DNA from: Clostridia bacterium
Lineage (GTDB): Bacteria > Bacillota > Clostridia > Oscillospirales > CAG-272
Direction of reading: 5' to 3'
Assembly (NCBI GenBank): GCA_017451485.1
Contig: JAFTOG010000020.1
Coordinates: 13,498 to 77,497 of the forward strand
Length of the DNA: 64,000 nt
Shown here: positions 5,497 through 10,557 of the stretch, in pieces
Numbering within the stretch: the first letter of the stretch is position 1
Layout of the letters: every line of letters starts with the position of its first letter
The notes under the pieces: model-generated
Told to the model about the DNA's origin: nothing
Databases searched by the model: none
Seen by the model: the letters and a program-made list of their open reading frames with translations, nothing else
Program-made: the position numbers and the translations under genes

Positions 5497-6639
5497 ATGA
5501 AGCCCTGTCCATATGCAAAAAAGTGTAGTGGATGTCAGCTACAGAACCTGTCATACGATGAACAGCTATCTATGAAACAGGTGAAGCTTATTAAGCTTCT
5601 TGGTAAATACGGACATGTAGAAGAGATTATCGGTATGGAAAAGCCGTATTTCTACAGAAATAAGATACAGTCAGCTATGGGTATAAAAAACGGTAGAATT
5701 ATATCCGGCATATATCAATCCGTTACCCATAAAATTACTCCGGTGGATGGCTGTATGCTGGAGGATAAATGTGCTGAGCTCATTGTAAAAACAATAAGAG
5801 ACCTTTGCCCATCATTTAAGATAAAGGCATATGATTTGAACACAGGGTCAGGCTTTTTAAGGCATATTCTTATAAGAAGGGCATTTTCCACAGGGGAAAT
5901 AATGGTTGTGCTCGTTACCACCGTAGGTGACTTTAAGTCAAAGCGTTCCTTTGTAAATGAGCTGTTACGCCGTCACCCCGAAATTACCACAGCTGTCTGG
6001 AATATAAACAATACTCAAACTCCCCTTATGCTGGGCGAGTACAGTGAGGTCTTGTACGGTGACGGATATATTACGGACACCCTCTGTGGCTTGTCCTTCC
6101 GCATCAGCCCAAGGTCATTTTATCAGGTAAACCCCATTCAAACAGAAAAATTATACACACTTGCCGGGGAATTTGCCTCCCTTACAGGCAAGGAAAGAGT
6201 AATAGATGCATACTGTGGCACAGGTACCATAGGTATGACTATGGCAAGCAGGGCAAAGGAAGTAATAGGCGTAGAAATAAACGGGGATGCCGTGTGCGAC
6301 GCTAAGGAAAACGCCAGACTCAACGGAGTTAAAAACATAAAATTCTATAACGCTGACGCAGGAGATTTCATGCGAGATATGGCGTCCCACAGAGAAAAAG
6401 CCGATGTGGTAATTACCGATCCTCCAAGAGCAGGCTGTAGCATGCAGTTCCTCCGTAGTCTTATCTCCCTTTCTCCCAAGCGTATAGTCTATATTTCCTG
6501 TAACCCAGAAACCCTCGCAAGGGATTTAGGTACTCTTGTTAAAAATGGATACAAGGTGCAAAAAATTCAGGGAGTGGATATGTTTCCGCATACAAACCAT
6601 GTCGAGAGTGTCGTTTGTCTCAAAAGGAGAATCCAATGA
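5497..6639 (+). CDS. rlmD: 23S rRNA (uracil-C5)-methyltransferase, RlmD/RumA family (TRAM-less)
   Basis: 380 aa. N-terminal Cys cluster CPYAKKCSGCQ, SAM motif DAYCGTGTIG, catalytic DPPRAGC and ISCNP, C-terminal HVESVVCL. Confidence 0.85.
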   Translation: MKPCPYAKKCSGCQLQNLSYDEQLSMKQVKLIKLLGKYGHVEEIIGMEKPYFYRNKIQSAMGIKNGRIISGIYQSVTHKITPVDGCMLEDKCAELIVKTIRDLCPSFKIKAYDLNTGSGFLRHILIRRAFSTGEIMVVLVTTVGDFKSKRSFVNELLRRHPEITTAVWNINNTQTPLMLGEYSEVLYGDGYITDTLCGLSFRISPRSFYQVNPIQTEKLYTLAGEFASLTGKERVIDAYCGTGTIGMTMASRAKEVIGVEINGDAVCDAKENARLNGVKNIKFYNADAGDFMRDMASHREKADVVITDPPRAGCSMQFLRSLISLSPKRIVYISCNPETLARDLGTLVKNGYKVQKIQGVDMFPHTNHVESVVCLKRRIQ

Positions 6640-6887
6640 AAAAAGATAAAAAGCATATCGGGTGGGCGCTGTTAGAGGGCTTGGGCGAGTTAATATTAAC
6701 TTTGCTCTGTCTTGGAATAGGTGTGTTTATTGTCGGTTTGTTCGGCGTGGACTTTGAATCGCCAGACATAGACTATGATTTGATTATTTTACTCGGTGTT
6801 GTCGTTTTCTTTGTGATTTTTGGAGTCGTCTATGCTTTGATAAAATGGATTAAGAAAATGGTCAAAAACAAACGCAACAGCAATTGA
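6636..6887 (+). CDS. small two-TM membrane protein (83 aa)
   Basis: ATG at 6636 overlaps the rlmD stop as ATGA and is preceded by aaggaga. Two hydrophobic helices. No homology recognised. Confidence 0.5.
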   Translation: MKKDKKHIGWALLEGLGELILTLLCLGIGVFIVGLFGVDFESPDIDYDLIILLGVVVFFVIFGVVYALIKWIKKMVKNKRNSN

Positions 6888-6900
6888 GACTTTAAGATAT

Positions 6901-6974
6901 TACAACCCCTATTTTTCAGACCTTTTGGAGTCCCCACCCACGTCGAATCCGTCGTTTGTCTGACGCGAAAATAA
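6901..6974 (+). repeat. rlmD-3'-end repeat copy A (arm + HVESVVCLTRK-stop)
   Basis: tacaacccctatttttcagaccttttggagtc... then cac gtc gaa tcc gtc gtt tgt ctg acg cga aaa taa (6939-6974). Confidence 0.8.
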
Positions 6975-6982
6975 GCGATTTT

Positions 6983-7047
6983 GACCCTAAAATGGGCATT
7001 TTTCAGCCTTTTTGAATGACTTTTTAGTAAACCACGTGTTTGAAATC
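6983..7047 (+). repeat. degenerate partial copy of the same repeat
   Basis: gaccct..atttttcagcctttttgaatgac..aaaccacgtgtttgaaatc aligns by eye with copy A, but the HVESVV codons are decayed. Confidence 0.45.
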
Positions 7048-7082
7048 AAAAAACGCCCCAAAACTACCTTGGGACAAATGAT

Positions 7083-7140
7083 ACTTTTGAGCAAAACTCG
7101 AAAGTTCATTTTACAGCAGTTAGGGGTAACATATCGAAAG
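7083..7140 (+). repeat. second repeat family, copy 1 (leader of ORF 7148)
   Basis: ttttgagcaaaactcgaa (7085-7102) is identical to 8373-8390. The following ~35 nt are ~75 percent similar and end in atatcgaaa. Confidence 0.75.
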
Positions 7141-7147
7141 GAGAACA

Positions 7148-7666
7148 ATGAAATCAAAAGTTTCAAAACAGAATGAATTTGATCCTAAATTGGGATTTGA
7201 GATAAGAAACCCTGTCTGGGCGTTTTGGGTTTGTCTATTGGCGATGATAGGTTGCCTTGTAACCTTTTTTGCGTTTCTTTACCTAAAACGGCAGAACACA
7301 ATAACAGAAAACACTTTTTATATTGGCTACATCTTTTTAGGTGTGTTCCTCCTATCTGCTGTTGGTGTTTACGCTTGGGTTTATGAGAAGCTTACATATT
7401 CGGATGGCGTTTATAAATATTATAAGGCTTTCGGTAAAAATCGGATTGCATCTGTTGAAGAAATAGGCTCGGTTAAAGTTTTAACTGTTTATTATCATAC
7501 CAAATATGGTATACGCAGTAAAATACGAGTTTTCTTTTACGACAAGTCAAAGAACATTCTAATAAAGATAATCGACGACGGCACATTAAGTAAAAACGAA
7601 ACATTCTTAAAATCGTTAAAATATAATCGCATAAAGATAATACGCGAGGAAAAATACGATTGTTGA
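7148..7666 (+). CDS. membrane protein, two TM helices plus soluble C-terminal domain (172 aa)
   Basis: Strong RBS aaaggag. Hydrophobic segments WAFWVCLLAMIGCLVTFFAFLYL and IGYIFLGVFLLSAVGVYAWVY. No motif recognised. Confidence 0.6.
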   Translation: MKSKVSKQNEFDPKLGFEIRNPVWAFWVCLLAMIGCLVTFFAFLYLKRQNTITENTFYIGYIFLGVFLLSAVGVYAWVYEKLTYSDGVYKYYKAFGKNRIASVEEIGSVKVLTVYYHTKYGIRSKIRVFFYDKSKNILIKIIDDGTLSKNETFLKSLKYNRIKIIREEKYDC

Positions 7667-7740
7667 TATGTTTCCAAGTATTGCCTCGAAATCAGGTACA
7701 AAAGTGCTTTTCCACCTATGTTTTGAGGACTTTTTGGACT

Positions 7741-7833
7741 TACAACCCCTGTTTTTAGACAGTTTTAAGACCTTTTGGAGTCTTGACCCACGTCGAGAGT
7801 GTCGTTTGTCTCAAACGACAGATTCAACAATGA
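7741..7833 (+). repeat. rlmD-3'-end repeat copy B (arm + HVESVVCLKRQIQQ-stop)
   Basis: 7792-7815 is 24/24 identical to rlmD 6601-6624. The arm tacaacccctgtttttagac..ccttttggagtc is shared with copies A and C. Confidence 0.85.
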
Positions 7834-7987
7834 ATTGCAATCATGCGATTGCGTGAATTGAGCACGAGTGCTGATGAATTGCCCTGCGGGGCATTGGGGT
7901 TGCAATTCAATTCATGGAGGAGACGGAACGCCGACGAGAAATCATGAAGCCACAGGCTTCAATTCATGACACGAAGTGTCAAATCAT
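7831..7987 (+). repeat. phased mini-hairpin array with conserved TGAATTG / AAWTCATG spacers
   Basis: TGAATTG at 7831, 7854, 7875. CAATTCA/AATTCATG at 7903/7909, AAATCATG at 7939, AATTCATG at 7961, AAATCAT at 7981. Hairpins at 7837-7852, 7861-7872, 7881-7892, 7945-7961, 7967-7981. Confidence 0.7.
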
Positions 7988-8005
7988 TTTACTTTGGAAT
8001 TTACG

Positions 8006-8371
8006 ATGAAAGAAAACTATCTAGTAGATTTATCAAAACAATTTGCCGTTGATATCGTCAATCTTTGCACAGATATCAAAGAAAACCGCAAAAGCAATGT
8101 GTTGGTAAATCAAGTTTTGCTTAGCGGCACAAGTATTGGTGCAAACATTCACGAAGCCAATTATGCCGCAAGCAAGGCAGACTTTATCAATAAATTTCAA
8201 GTTACACTGAAAGAGTGCTATGAAACGGATTATTGGCTTGACTTATTCAAAGACACACATATGATAACCGAAGAAGAATACAGGGATATGTTTGTAAAAT
8301 GTAGTAAAATTCGCAAGTTGATTATCTCCTCCATCCCCAACCGCAAAGGGAACGGTTGGGGACAAAAGTGA
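8006..8371 (+). CDS. four-helix-bundle protein (23S rRNA intervening-sequence protein / Avd-like family)
   Basis: 121 aa. SGTSIGANIHEA..ASKADFINKF..ECYETDYWL pattern is typical of TIGR02436/PF05635 proteins. Weak RBS. Confidence 0.75.
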   Translation: MKENYLVDLSKQFAVDIVNLCTDIKENRKSNVLVNQVLLSGTSIGANIHEANYAASKADFINKFQVTLKECYETDYWLDLFKDTHMITEEEYRDMFVKCSKIRKLIISSIPNRKGNGWGQK

Positions 8372-8428
8372 GTTTTGAGCAAAACTCGAAGCTCTCATTT
8401 ACAGTAGTAATGGTTAAATATATCGAAA
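8371..8428 (+). repeat. second repeat family, copy 2 (leader of ORF 8459)
   Basis: See 7083-7140. Begins with hairpin gagttttGAGCaaaactc (8370-8387). Confidence 0.75.
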
Positions 8429-8458
8429 TAAAAATAAAAATGAATTGGAAAAATAAAA

Positions 8459-9103
8459 ATGAAAAAAATTGTTCTTATCGGTGATTCTATTAGGATGGGC
8501 TATGATAAATATATTAAGGACGCCTTAAGCGGATCTGCCGAGGTTTTTTATCCTTCTGAAAATTGTAGATTTGCAGAGTATGTTTTACGCTATGCACACG
8601 AGTGGAAGGCAAGTGGAGAGTGGGGGGATGATGTTGATCTCGTCCATTGGAACGCAGGGCTTTGGGATGCGTTGGAGCTGTTTGGTGACGCACCACTTAC
8701 ATCAATATCTTACTACGGAGAGGCTATATCACGAATAAACAAAAGACTTCGTATGCTTTTTCCAAAGGCCAAATTTGTGTTTGCGACCTCAACCAATGTA
8801 AGTGAAAAAATGAGCAATCCCGACTTTACAAGACACAACGCAACCATAGAAAAATATAATACCGAGGCACTTCGTGCTTTGTCGGGGACGGATACCGTCA
8901 TAAATGATCTTTATTCGCTTACATCCTCTGTGCCCGATTCTTATCGTTCTGATTGGGTTCATTTTTACACACCTGAGGGCACAGAGTTGATCGGCGGCAA
9001 GGTTTTGTCTGTGATCTGTGAGATTCTTGATATAACGCCCGAACAGATCAATATAGAAAAGTTCGAGTCGGAACGCTATTCAAAGAGCAATATCGGATAT
9101 TGA
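8459..9103 (+). CDS. SGNH/GDSL-family hydrolase
   Basis: 214 aa. Block I LIGDSIRMGY (GDS), later NAGLWD and a DWVH-type block V. Confidence 0.7.
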   Translation: MKKIVLIGDSIRMGYDKYIKDALSGSAEVFYPSENCRFAEYVLRYAHEWKASGEWGDDVDLVHWNAGLWDALELFGDAPLTSISYYGEAISRINKRLRMLFPKAKFVFATSTNVSEKMSNPDFTRHNATIEKYNTEALRALSGTDTVINDLYSLTSSVPDSYRSDWVHFYTPEGTELIGGKVLSVICEILDITPEQINIEKFESERYSKSNIGY

Positions 9104-9120
9104 GTTATTCATTTTGGTTT

Positions 9121-9212
9121 TATAACCCTGTTTTTCGGAAAATTTGATACCTTTTGGAGCCTTGACCCATGTCGAATCCGTCGTCCGTCTGACAAAAAGT
9201 TCTGTAAAATAG
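9121..9212 (+). repeat. rlmD-3'-end repeat copy C (arm + HVESVVRLTKSSVK-stop)
   Basis: tataaccctgtttttcgg..ccttttggagcc..cat gtc gaa tcc gtc gtc cgt ctg aca... tag (9168-9212). Confidence 0.75.
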
Positions 9213-9311
9213 ATTATATTACAAAGATATTTTTATACATAACAAAGGCGAAATTCTAAAATCCTTTGTTATGAATAAGGTGATACATAATTAAGCAAAA
9301 AATATAAATAA

Positions 9312-9351
9312 ATGACGCAAAAACGGACCTCGTGGTCCGTTTTTTGCGTCA
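9312..9351. terminator. bidirectional rho-independent terminator (18-bp perfect stem)
   Basis: atgacgcaaaaacggacc tcgt ggtccgtttttgcgtcat, flanked by A/T runs. Lies just downstream of the minus-strand aminotransferase gene. Confidence 0.8.
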
Positions 9352-9369
9352 TTTAGATTGTTTGTATGT

Positions 9370-10557
9370 TTATTTATTATATTCCTCGGCAAGAGCCTTA
9401 AAGGCAGGAAGTGCATTTACAATTCTTTGCTTATCTACGCAGTAAGCAATTCTTACATATCCCTTAACACCGAAGTCATCACAGGGAACGACAAGAATTT
9501 CCTTGGATTTTGCCTTTTCAAAGAATTTCATAGCATCGTCCTCAAGAGCCTTTACAAAAAGGTAGAAGGCACCGTCGGGCTGAACACACTCGTAGCCGTA
9601 CTCGGTTAGGGCAGAGTAGAGAATATCCCTGTTTTCCTTATATATATTTACATCAACCTTAGCTCCGATGCATTTTTTGATAACCTGCTGGAAAAGGCTG
9701 GGTGCACAAACATAACCAAGAGAACGGCCTGCACCGCAGATAGCAAGGTAAACATTTACAGAGTCCTCCATCTTTGGGCTTACCGCAATGTATCCAATTC
9801 TTTCACCGGGAAGGGAAAGAGCCTTGGAGTAGGAGTAGCAAACAATTGTATTATCGTAGTAGTTCATAAGGTAGGGCACAGGCACACCGTCGAATATAAG
9901 CTCACGGTATGGCTCATCAGCGATAAGATAAATAGGATGTCCGTATTCCTTTTCCTTTGCCGTAAGGGTAGCACAAACCGCCTTAATTGTCTCCTCATTG
10001 TATACAACTCCACTGGGATTGTTAGGGGAGTTCATAATTACTGCTTTGGTGTTTTCTGTTATCTTGCTTTCAAAATCCTTAATATCCACCTGGAAGGTCT
10101 TTTCACAGGGGGTGGAGATAACAACCTTGCCCTGGGCATTTTCGATAAATACACGGTATTCTGTAAAGAAGGGAGCAAAAACAATACATTCCTCATTAGG
10201 ATTGAGAAGTGCACGCAAGGAAATAGTAAGAGAAGCTGCTGCACCACAGGTCATATATATATTGTTAGCAGTAACCCCGGCATCAAAGCGTGCATTGATA
10301 TCATCTGCAACTGCCTGGCGTGTGCCAAGGTCGCCCTGTGCAGATGTATAGCCGTGTAAAAGCACGGAATTTTCATTTTTTATAAGGTCGCAGATAGTGT
10401 CGCTGATTTCCTTAGGAGGCTCAACGCTTGGATTTCCGATACTAAAGTCAAAAACCTTGTCTGCACCGATTTCAACAGCTCTCTGTTTACAGTATTCAAA
10501 TATCTCACGGATAATTGAACGTTTACTGCCGAGAGCATACATTTTTTCGTTAATCAT
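9370..10557 (-). CDS. pyridoxal-phosphate-dependent aminotransferase (class I, aspartate/aromatic type)
   Basis: 395 aa. SYSKALSLPGERIGY PLP-lysine region and NSPNNPSG motif. Confidence 0.85.
   Translation of the reverse strand: MINEKMYALGSKRSIIREIFEYCKQRAVEIGADKVFDFSIGNPSVEPPKEISDTICDLIKNENSVLLHGYTSAQGDLGTRQAVADDINARFDAGVTANNIYMTCGAAASLTISLRALLNPNEECIVFAPFFTEYRVFIENAQGKVVISTPCEKTFQVDIKDFESKITENTKAVIMNSPNNPSGVVYNEETIKAVCATLTAKEKEYGHPIYLIADEPYRELIFDGVPVPYLMNYYDNTIVCYSYSKALSLPGERIGYIAVSPKMEDSVNVYLAICGAGRSLGYVCAPSLFQQVIKKCIGAKVDVNIYKENRDILYSALTEYGYECVQPDGAFYLFVKALEDDAMKFFEKAKSKEILVVPCDDFGVKGYVRIAYCVDKQRIVNALPAFKALAEEYNK

Follow-up and report, generated by a model that had tools for sequence, protein, structure and literature searches.

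The intervening sequence (IVS) in the 23S ribosomal RNA (rRNA) of Coxiella burnetii has three to four GACAGAT heptamers, in a number that varies among strains, and has been called selfish, within a conserved host gene; it has a 28-bp terminal stem that is cut by RNase III at the first heptamer, and its S23p protein is a homopentamer (PMC4990558). Avd, from diversity-generating retroelements (DGRs), is also a pentamer, and all five protomers contact one tetraloop-capped RNA stem-loop beside its gene (bioRxiv 10.1101/2023.10.23.563531). Gut-1 (RF01706) has been described from human-gut metagenomes only, as a non-cis-regulatory RNA to which neither an associated gene nor a function was assigned (Weinberg et al. 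2010, PMC2864571). The present study concerns a 64,000-nucleotide stretch of a Clostridia bacterium genome (assembly GCA_017451485.1, contig JAFTOG010000020.1; hereafter the window), in which conserved 7-nt words alternate with hairpins of variable sequence at 7831-7987, directly upstream of a gene for a four-helix-bundle (4HB) protein of the PF05635/TIGR02436 “S23p” family. The reading preferred here, with a probability of roughly 45%, is that this array is an RNA cis-element belonging to an S23p module of IVS type, and that it is bound by the pentamer, processed, or both.

The window array resembles the Coxiella IVS in having a PF05635 protein, heptamer repeats beside the open reading frame (ORF), a variable copy number and complementary arms, which in the IVS are about 4 x 7 = 28 nt. 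It differs in its location outside rRNA genes, in having both arms ahead of the ORF, and in the hairpins that stand between its heptamers, those of the IVS being in tandem. The window has no rRNA by Rfam, and the array is between protein-coding genes, not in helix 25 or 45 of a 23S gene as IVSs are. No stem of about 28 bp encloses the ORF; both sets of words are upstream, and only a 10-bp helix between the first left word (L1) and the first right word (R0) is supported. The window protein has a fold homologous to that of Avd (PDB 4DWL, 8UB7), but DGRs have a reverse transcriptase and template and variable repeats (TR/VR), the Avd RNA is one hairpin of 9-11 bp and not an array, and the window protein is not strongly basic. 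No reverse-transcriptase-like ORF or template/variable repeats are present among the window neighbours or in six related loci (L001-L006), judged by translations and Pfam.

Gut-1 has the consensus CAaUGAAAU-hairpin-GUGAAAU-hairpin-GUGAAAU-hairpin. In its left half the window array likewise has CAA followed by a 7-nt linker and hairpin three or four times, in sequence of gut Clostridia type, and the array has the three hairpins, conserved 7-nt linker and preceding CAA of Gut-1; however, the Gut-1 linker is GUGAAAU or GUGAUAU while that of the window is AUGAAUU, and the Rfam model covers the left half only. The Gut-1 model has no match at E <= 10 on 7760-8010 or 6500-9500, and none at gathering (50 bits) over the whole window. 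The flanks of the published Gut-1 alignment hold unannotated reverse-complement words and hairpins, plus a GUGAUAU/AUAUCAC variant. At one locus (L071), a TGAATTG array with 26.6 bits on Gut-1 is followed 45 nt on by a true Gut-1 copy of 53.9 bits, and the other half of this second array matches Gut-1 on the opposite strand. Of 20 loci tested with true Gut-1 matches (54-80 bits), 18 have a 4HB gene downstream of the match, and the match usually follows a tRNA gene. Judged from sequence, the window array belongs to the AUGAAUU class of a family whose GUGAAAU class includes Gut-1. The AUGAAUU word class and the full two-halved architecture are new, and the gene association was not found reported in the literature searched; searches of the literature for the word strings gave only microRNA and primer noise.

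Structure and conservation of the array

The array is genuine, is not a product of chance and is conserved. Of the nine TGAATTG sites (both strands) of the window, six are within 136 nt at the array, while the window as a whole is poorer in TGAATTG than its shuffles (9 vs 14.8). A word-agnostic detector, which requires a word at least three times at 14-32 nt spacing and then its reverse complement at least twice, has the array as its sole match in the 64 kb. At least four chained copies of any 6-mer or its complement occur in 4 of 386 window tiles of 330 nt, and two of the four are the array. The region 7667-8010 has a fold that beats all 100 shuffles (z = -2.9), shuffled sequence being the control named in a first-pass annotation made from the sequence alone. 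A profile from 48 arrays of other genomes, with the window left out, matches 7811-7991 with E 8.7e-34 on the plus strand and 1.4e-7 on the minus strand (nhmmer), and a profile from arrays that have no adjoining 4HB gene (gene-less arrays) has a window match with E 2.3e-31.

The positions of the words and of the five hairpins listed in the first-pass annotation all agree with the sequence, as does its description of a conserved word, a variable palindrome and an orientation that flips at the centre; its count of seven words is corrected to eight, with three on the left, R0, and four on the right (Table 1). TGAATTG starts at 7831, 7854 and 7875 and CAATTCA at 7903, and the right words are AATTCATG at 7909 and 7961, AAATCATG at 7939 and AAATCAT at 7981. 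The stretch 7800-7987 consists of a hairpin, H0, followed by three AUGAAUU-type words and five AAUUCAU/AAAUCAU words, with G...C-closed hairpins between them. As the first base of each inter-word hairpin is G and the last is C, the linkers are all exactly 7 nt. For H2, a stem of 4 bp and a loop of 4 nt (7861-7864/7869-7872) make the better model. The doubling of R0 and R1 is asymmetric and thus defines the orientation of the array. The modal form in the family is four left words, centre, R0 and four right words, so one left unit is absent from the window, which otherwise has the full family layout (H0, CA, left words with hairpins, centre, doubled R0/R1, right words with hairpins). A hairpin of variable sequence is immediately 5' of the first word in most arrays of the family. 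H0, the 10-bp pairing of 7831-7840 with 7900-7909, the covarying long-range helix and the kinship with Gut-1 had been missed in the first pass.

Hairpin arms are far more complementary within arrays than between them (for H2, 3.96 vs 1.50 bp), and RNAalifold gives 13 pairs with double compensatory changes. All 20 pairings of a left word with a right word have been tested for array-specific extension, and only L1:R0 extends in this way, with 4.6 bp within arrays and 2.6 bp between arrays. The resulting helix (P-long), in which L1 and the 5' arm of hairpin H1 pair with the extension and R0, covaries across the family. The covariation across homologous arrays proposed earlier as a check is therefore present both in the hairpins and in one long-range helix. 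The bases ahead of R0 repeat the 3' arm of H1, which makes H1 and P-long mutually exclusive; the energy favours P-long over H1 in 52 of 52 arrays. A nested ladder of words (L1:R4 ... L4:R1) has been rejected as the main fold because it has no covariation and a mean of -27.2 kcal/mol, against -33.0 kcal/mol for the local hairpins alone, and the L4:R0 helix chosen by RNAalifold is not array-specific. The earlier statement that the words are roughly two helical turns apart does not hold across the family, in which the spacing is 16-24 nt and unphased, so that hairpin length is immaterial, as a folded single strand predicts.

Several known types of repeat have been considered and rejected. The array is neither a terminator nor a known riboswitch, as the first-pass annotation had held, and has no Rfam family. 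It is not a CRISPR, in that the repeat is 7 nt and not 24-48 nt, the “spacers” are palindromic and no cas genes are nearby. Type III toxin-antitoxin (ToxI-like) arrays do not fit, since those have near-identical tandem units of about 34-36 nt while units here differ beyond the 7-nt word, and the protein is PF05635 rather than ToxN/AbiQ. A plasmid iteron or centromere, which had been offered as one possibility, is disfavoured by the unphased 16-24 nt spacing, by stems kept through compensatory change and by the lack of rep or par genes near the window array. Short ORFs crossing the array (7668-7856, and MNC... from 7874) have been rejected as coding, as by reading their frame is not kept between L001 and the window.

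Table 1. Features of the array and its surroundings in the window
Feature	Coordinates	Strand	Evidence or remark
Duplicated remnant of RlmD gene 3' end, reads HVESVVCLKRQIQQ then stop	7789-7833	+	alignment of 6560-6700 vs 7740-7840 and L001; real end HVESVVCLKRRIQ then stop at ~6600-6639
H0 hairpin (TGTCGTTTG / CAAACGACA), then ...CA linker ahead of first word	7800-7820	+	
Left word L1 (AUGAAUU)	7830-7836	+	
P-long, 5' strand (UGAAUUGCAA)	7831-7840	+	10 bp; partner 7900-7909 (UUGCAAUUCA)
Hairpin H1 (GCAATC-ATGC-GATTGC)	7837-7852	+	5' arm has alternative partner 7900-7902
Left word L2 (GUGAAUU)	7853-7859	+	
Hairpin H2 (AGCA-CGAG-TGCT)	7860-7873	+	
Last left word (AUGAAUU)	7874-7880	+	
Central hairpin Hc (GCCC-TGCG-GGGC)	7881-7892	+	
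Extension “ext” (AUUGGGGUUG)	7893-7902	+	3' end UUG and R0 pair with L1 and H1 5' arm
Doubled right words R0 (CAAUUCA) and R1 (AAUUCAU)	7903-7915	+	one A in common
Element H1' (GGAGGAGACGGAACGCCGACGAG)	7916-7938	+	long form of conserved GGAGCGAAGCGAG element
Right word R2 (AAAUCAU)	7939-7945	+	
Hairpin H2' (GAAGCC-ACA-GGCTTC)	7946-7960	+	
Right word R3 (AAUUCAU)	7961-7967	+	
Hairpin H3' (GACAC-GAA-GTGTC)	7968-7980	+	
Right word R4 (AAAUCAU)	7981-7987	+	
4HB gene, PF05635/TIGR02436 “S23p” family, 121 aa	8006-8371	+	Pfam E 3e-23; TIGR02436 91 bits
Tail, possibly part of the module: H0-like hairpin (GAGTTTTGAGCAAAACTC), conserved CATTTACAGTAGTAATGG stretch, solitary ATGAATTG at 8440-8447	8372-8447	+	

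Linkage of the words to four-helix-bundle genes

The gene directly downstream of the array belongs to PF05635, as the first-pass annotation had suggested. R4 is 8 nt from the GGA of the ribosome-binding region and 18 nt from the start codon, and in 4HB-linked arrays in general the last word is 5-9 nt ahead of a GGAG Shine-Dalgarno sequence. A metagenome scan with a 4HB alignment gives 80 relatives with 46-91% identity, 73 of them with enough upstream sequence; 57 of the 73 are array-positive automatically, and most of the others are partial, one-sided or expanded by eye. In the pooled loci, 94 of 104 4HB genes have at least four chained words within 330 nt upstream, compared with 4 of 386 control tiles. 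Close homologues of the window protein (78-88% identity) in L001-L006 carry the same array, with invariant words and with hairpins changed by compensatory substitution. The word follows the protein clade, with 70-76% identity within a word class and 43-55% between classes. The TGAATT class has at least about 59% identity to the window protein and the TGAAAT class about 47-58%, and further classes have TGAAGT, TGATAT or ATATCATCA.

The window protein matches PDB 2RLD, which has five chains, with E 1e-26. Its predicted structure (pLDDT 89) has a TM of 0.88 to 2RLD, also superposes on Xanthomonas S23p (2GSC), and has a TM of about 0.72-0.74 to the Avd chains 8UB7 and 4DWL with probability 1.00 (Foldseek). 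The RNA scaffold for a helical-bundle protein that had been suggested in the first pass fits these results, with arrays at about 90% of related 4HB genes and an Avd pentamer that binds an RNA hairpin; together with the tracking of word and clade and the four to five words per half, RNA binding by Avd and the gene linkage make an RNA-protein particle the best-supported model. We infer that the strand folds as RNA rather than as single-stranded DNA, that the protein binds it, and that autoregulation or processing is the outcome. On this model the array would be transcribed on the plus strand as the leader of the 4HB mRNA and would fold, in order, into H0, left units of a 7-nt word and a G...C hairpin, the central hairpin, and right units of a reverse-complement word and a hairpin. 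P-long pairing would close the left half into a compact multi-hairpin domain and leave the right words exposed upstream of the ribosome-binding site. Words and hairpins would dock the pentameric protein, as the tetraloop hairpin does Avd, and may also be substrates of RNase III; the protein would govern how its own leader is processed or translated, and gene-less arrays of the same word class elsewhere in the genome could be further targets.

The gene order upstream bears on this proposal. In the window clade the array is an intercistronic leader that abuts the Shine-Dalgarno sequence, and no promoter separates it from the gene; there is also no strong promoter upstream of the window array. 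In L002 and L003 an intact RlmD gene runs straight into the array, which fills the RlmD-4HB intercistronic space. The RlmD stop is the UGA within L1 or L2 (aUGAauu) in ten loci (L002, L003, L012, L017, L041, L054, L075, L084, L095, L115). With the stop inside a word, ribosomes ending RlmD must unwind H0, L1 and H1, and RlmD translation could be coupled to the switch between H1 and P-long. In L168 and L169 a TATAAT box, four right units, a Shine-Dalgarno sequence and the 4HB gene follow in order.

Several observations weigh against an RNA leader that is read by the 4HB protein. About 70% of the listed TGAATTG arrays have no adjoining 4HB gene and have mutually unrelated flanks, so arrays do not always flank PF05635 genes, as had been asked in the first pass; about a quarter of the listed arrays adjoin one. 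Stems have no enrichment in G-U, with 11 G-U vs 26 A-C among about 2,335 stem pairs, and the loops of the left half (UUC, UGC, UUGC...) are the reverse complements of those of the right half (GAA, GCA, GNNA); both are easier to reconcile with selection acting on DNA, or on both strands, than with selection on one RNA strand. The window protein is close to neutral in charge while Avd is basic, by residue count from sequence. The tracking of word and clade could be simple co-inheritance. The GUGAAAU class often has a sigma-70-like promoter between the array and the 4HB gene, which places the array outside that 4HB mRNA, and some 4HB genes have left-type units only, right-type units only, or the halves reversed.

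The promoter and G-U observations also favour an array of double-stranded-DNA operators or iterons, bound by the 4HB or another DNA-binding protein and controlling a nearby promoter or organising the locus. Arrays of the GUGAAAU and AUAUCAUCA classes abut the -35 of the sigma-70-like 4HB promoter, and direct and inverted copies of a word are equivalent on duplex DNA. Such an array is nevertheless very improbable, because a duplex site has no need of compensatory change in variable palindromes, the 16-24 bp spacing lacks helical phasing, the array of the window clade overlaps the upstream coding region and has no promoter between it and the gene, and the closest characterised homologue, Avd, binds an RNA hairpin. 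Across the family, strong sigma-70 matches beside arrays are rare (2 of 71 on each side), and dedicated promoters or terminators have been rejected as a general feature; several arrays have TTGACT-17-TATAAT placed right at H0.

Other features of the 4HB-linked loci vary. Well over ten units of one orientation are upstream of the 4HB genes in L170, L162 and L161; L170 has ATATCAtt with three alternating hairpins, while L162 has alternating AAATCA and AATTCA units. These expanded arrays indicate that unit number is unstable, like that of the Coxiella IVS heptamers. Automated gene calls often run the 4HB N-terminus back through the array, giving 146-179 aa rather than about 117-121 aa (P0002, P0004, P0010, P0011 and others), and the GTG-start ORF from 7976 in the window is such an over-extension. 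The gene after the 4HB gene varies and often overlaps the 4HB stop (L179/L185/L186, L194, L216, L167, L223, L229). By translation, genes at this position are cytidine-deaminase-like, P-loop kinase or FlaR-like, MazG-like and SDR, with an RlmD-like gene in L229; small operons of accessory genes seem to begin with the 4HB gene.

Dispersed and decayed copies

An exact-pattern scan of one genome per species gives at least 120 loci, of which about 103 are genuine arrays, and the listed arrays are nearly all from Oscillospiraceae, Acutalibacteraceae, Christensenellales and unclassified Clostridia of guts and rumens. The gene-less arrays have 95 singleton flanking-gene families and are often directly past a tRNA or tmRNA terminator; they are in the same orientation as the downstream gene in 30 cases vs 13. 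Flank motifs common to gene-less arrays were found in one subfamily of about eight loci only. Several assemblies have array copies on more than one contig. Many arrays are at contig ends (L007, L009, L016, L031, L032, L037, L044, L052, L064, L066, L079), and L066 and L079 are the halves of a single array that one assembly has on two separate contigs. Metagenome assemblies appear to be interrupted at the arrays, as would be expected of near-identical repeats in many copies. A phage origin has been rejected, with only five real arrays in 2.9 million viral contigs.

Minor sequence variants accompany some of these arrays. The H0 hairpin GCGTGTT-loop-AACACGC has a 12-nt loop in both orientations, ATCCTTAACGGAG and CTCCGTTAAGGAT (L024/L087 vs L027/L066), and so appears to be flipped in some lineages. 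A motif, GGCATCTAAATCGTTCAC, is 10-15 nt past some arrays of both the AUGAAUU and GUGAAAU classes (L030, L034, L037, L038, L048, L051, and L151 at about 1230-1250).

The dispersed copies are reminiscent of repetitive extragenic palindromic (REP) sequences, bacterial interspersed mosaic elements (BIMEs) and REP doublets forming hairpins (REPINs) with their REP-associated tyrosine transposases (RAYTs), which are also short palindromes dispersed after genes, in alternating clusters, with one family per cognate gene plus gene-less copies. In REP, however, the palindrome is conserved and the linkers vary, the reverse of the arrangement here, and RAYT is an HUH transposase while the present protein is a helical bundle.

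In the window, two small ORFs and then the RlmD gene are upstream of the array, with small membrane ORFs and a 214-aa ORF also nearby. The duplicated remnant of the RlmD 3' end includes H0, and its stop codon is the UGA of L1. Beyond the 4HB gene, the solitary ATGAATTG of the tail is just ahead of the ORF 8459-9103 and may be all that is left of a further array downstream. This tail recurs behind a 4HB remnant at about 7067-7147, and it is also present in L001 and L107. Decayed copies of the module are at 6900-6970, about 7067-7147 and 7709-7779; a 4HB 3' remnant (gggacaaatga) with the conserved tail is directly ahead of the ORF 7148-7666, and a second RlmD 3' remnant has a “ttacaacccc...ccttttggagtc” head, of which there are two degenerate copies besides. 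L001 (2400-2470) and L107 (860-1162) have the same decayed layout. The arrangement looks like tandem units of RlmD 3' end, array, 4HB gene, tail and cargo, with small cargo ORFs between. RlmD is replaced in L014 and L045 by the gene of a large serine recombinase, which ends 6-12 nt before H0 of the array linked to the 4HB gene; this suggests that the RlmD 3' end may serve an integrative element as attachment site. The module has no meaningful PADLOC defence match.

Dispersal and decay of this kind would be expected if the arrays were instead the terminal repeats of an IVS-like selfish module acting at the DNA level, with gene-less copies comparable to REPINs or to miniature inverted-repeat transposable elements (MITEs). 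Words and hairpins would then be read on single- or double-stranded DNA during copying or insertion, with the 4HB protein as an accessory, perhaps together with a reverse transcriptase acting in trans. The scatter over unrelated contexts, several contigs per assembly and many contig ends points this way, as do the favoured sites (after tRNA and tmRNA terminators, at the RlmD 3' end, and in operons of other phyla), the tandem and decayed modules with duplicated RlmD 3' ends, and the variable number of units, which recalls the strain-variable heptamers of Coxiella in an IVS called selfish (PMC4990558). The lack of a G-U excess and the dyad-like loop statistics fit as well. On the other side, the arrays have no linked gene for a transposase, integrase or reverse transcriptase, no target-site duplications or empty sites were found in the sequences compared, the clostridial arms are both upstream of the ORF and not around it, and arrays are rare in viral contigs. 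The RlmD-array-4HB order is kept at RlmD identities of 35-62%, which indicates long-term vertical stability, and the asymmetric centre and single covarying long-range helix argue for one functional strand. A selfish DNA module is rather unlikely as the whole explanation; it accounts better than the RNA cis-element for the dispersal, the insertion sites and the G-U statistics, and the two can hold together.

Heptamer cassettes in other phyla

The comparison outside the Clostridia covers 14 loci at about 11 distinct sites. Loci L232-L239 are from Bacteroidaceae and L240-L250 from plasmids of five phyla. In Bacteroidaceae, the 2RLD relatives separate araD from araA, or an aminotransferase gene from a DAHP-synthase gene; their 4HB genes have (GACAATT)x4 upstream and its reverse complement downstream, with variant words mirrored in both arms. 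Inverted tandem heptamers also flank plasmid-borne 4HB genes in Nostoc, Planktothrix, Gloeocapsa, Euhalothece, Bernardetia, Chondrinema and Chlorohelix, while Monoglobus and Pseudanabaena are ambiguous in this respect. Arms typically have four to five heptamers, with about 16 in Bernardetia and about 12 in Euhalothece, and pair without mismatch over about 28-35 bp, the duplex energies being -34 to -111 kcal/mol and mostly well below shuffled controls. Plasmid-borne 4HB genes are often inside restriction-modification, efflux or defence operons. Operon sites in L232-L250 are araD-araA, hsdS-hsdR, between an RND adaptor and permease, helicase-methylase, DUF1156-HEPN and upstream of cas1, and most of these loci have the inverted heptamer arms around the gene.

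These cassettes resemble the window in having the same gene family and 7-nt words about four times over, with the reverse complement opposite (GACAATT and AATTCAA vs ATGAATT); they differ in having no hairpins between the words and in having arms that enclose the ORF. We know of no published description of heptamer-bracketed 4HB operon cassettes. The cyanobacterial short tandemly repeated repetitive (STRR) sequences, reportedly described by Mazel et al. in 1990, are intergenic tandem heptanucleotide repeats of Nostocales and are not known to be linked to 4HB genes or inverted arms; the arms of Euhalothece and Nostoc resemble them. The IVS-like module raised in the first pass fits the occurrence of heptamer arrays around IVS and operon-inserted S23p genes of other phyla. 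The words of the window would be the clostridial counterpart of these tandem heptamers, and the clostridial array looks like a derived form, in which both arms would have moved upstream of the ORF and hairpins come to stand between the heptamers.

The perfect arm stems raise a further explanation in which the protein has no part. Double-stranded words cut by RNase III would uncouple the module from host transcripts (tRNA trailers, operon mRNAs), or left arrays in one transcript would zip to right arrays in another in an antisense-like manner, the hairpins only presenting or spacing the words. Left and right words are indeed reverse complements in every class seen (AUGAAUU, GUGAAAU, GUGAUAU, GUGAAGU, UUAUGAUU, AUAUCAUCA), the Coxiella IVS stem is cut at the first heptamer by RNase III (PMC4990558), and arrays with only left or only right units exist. 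Pairing of this kind is nonetheless quite unlikely to be the main function: the word ladder in Clostridia is weaker than the local hairpins, L1:R0 is alone among the left-right pairs in covarying, and the conserved AAAUCAU variant mismatches AUGAAUU. The related words across phyla (AAUUCAA in Nostoc, GACAAUU in Bacteroides, AUGAAUU here) point to a conserved reader, and tight gene linkage is left unexplained.

A broader view can be offered tentatively, and is on the whole doubtful: that S23p/4HB genes are a class of tiny multi-phylum modules in which the pentamer reads words and hairpins on RNA, about one word per protomer, with the word co-diversifying with the protein into orthogonal classes within one genome. 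The forms of this class would be rRNA IVSs, operon cassettes, tRNA-trailer modules and the clostridial arrays including Gut-1. Gene-less arrays would then be dispersed targets, as in a regulon or RNA-processing network, or non-autonomous copies of an unrecognised type of mobile element. PF05635/TIGR02436 has thousands of homologues per search and structures since 2006-2007, and to our knowledge no function outside DGRs. Gut-1 has been a motif with no assigned function since 2010, and its genetic coupling to PF05635 gives a lead on both. Words of 7 nt surround 4HB genes by the same logic in most of the loci examined from Bacteroidota, Cyanobacteriota and Chloroflexota, as well as in the Coxiella IVS of the literature, which suggests that 23S rRNA IVSs are one habitat of a broader class of elements.

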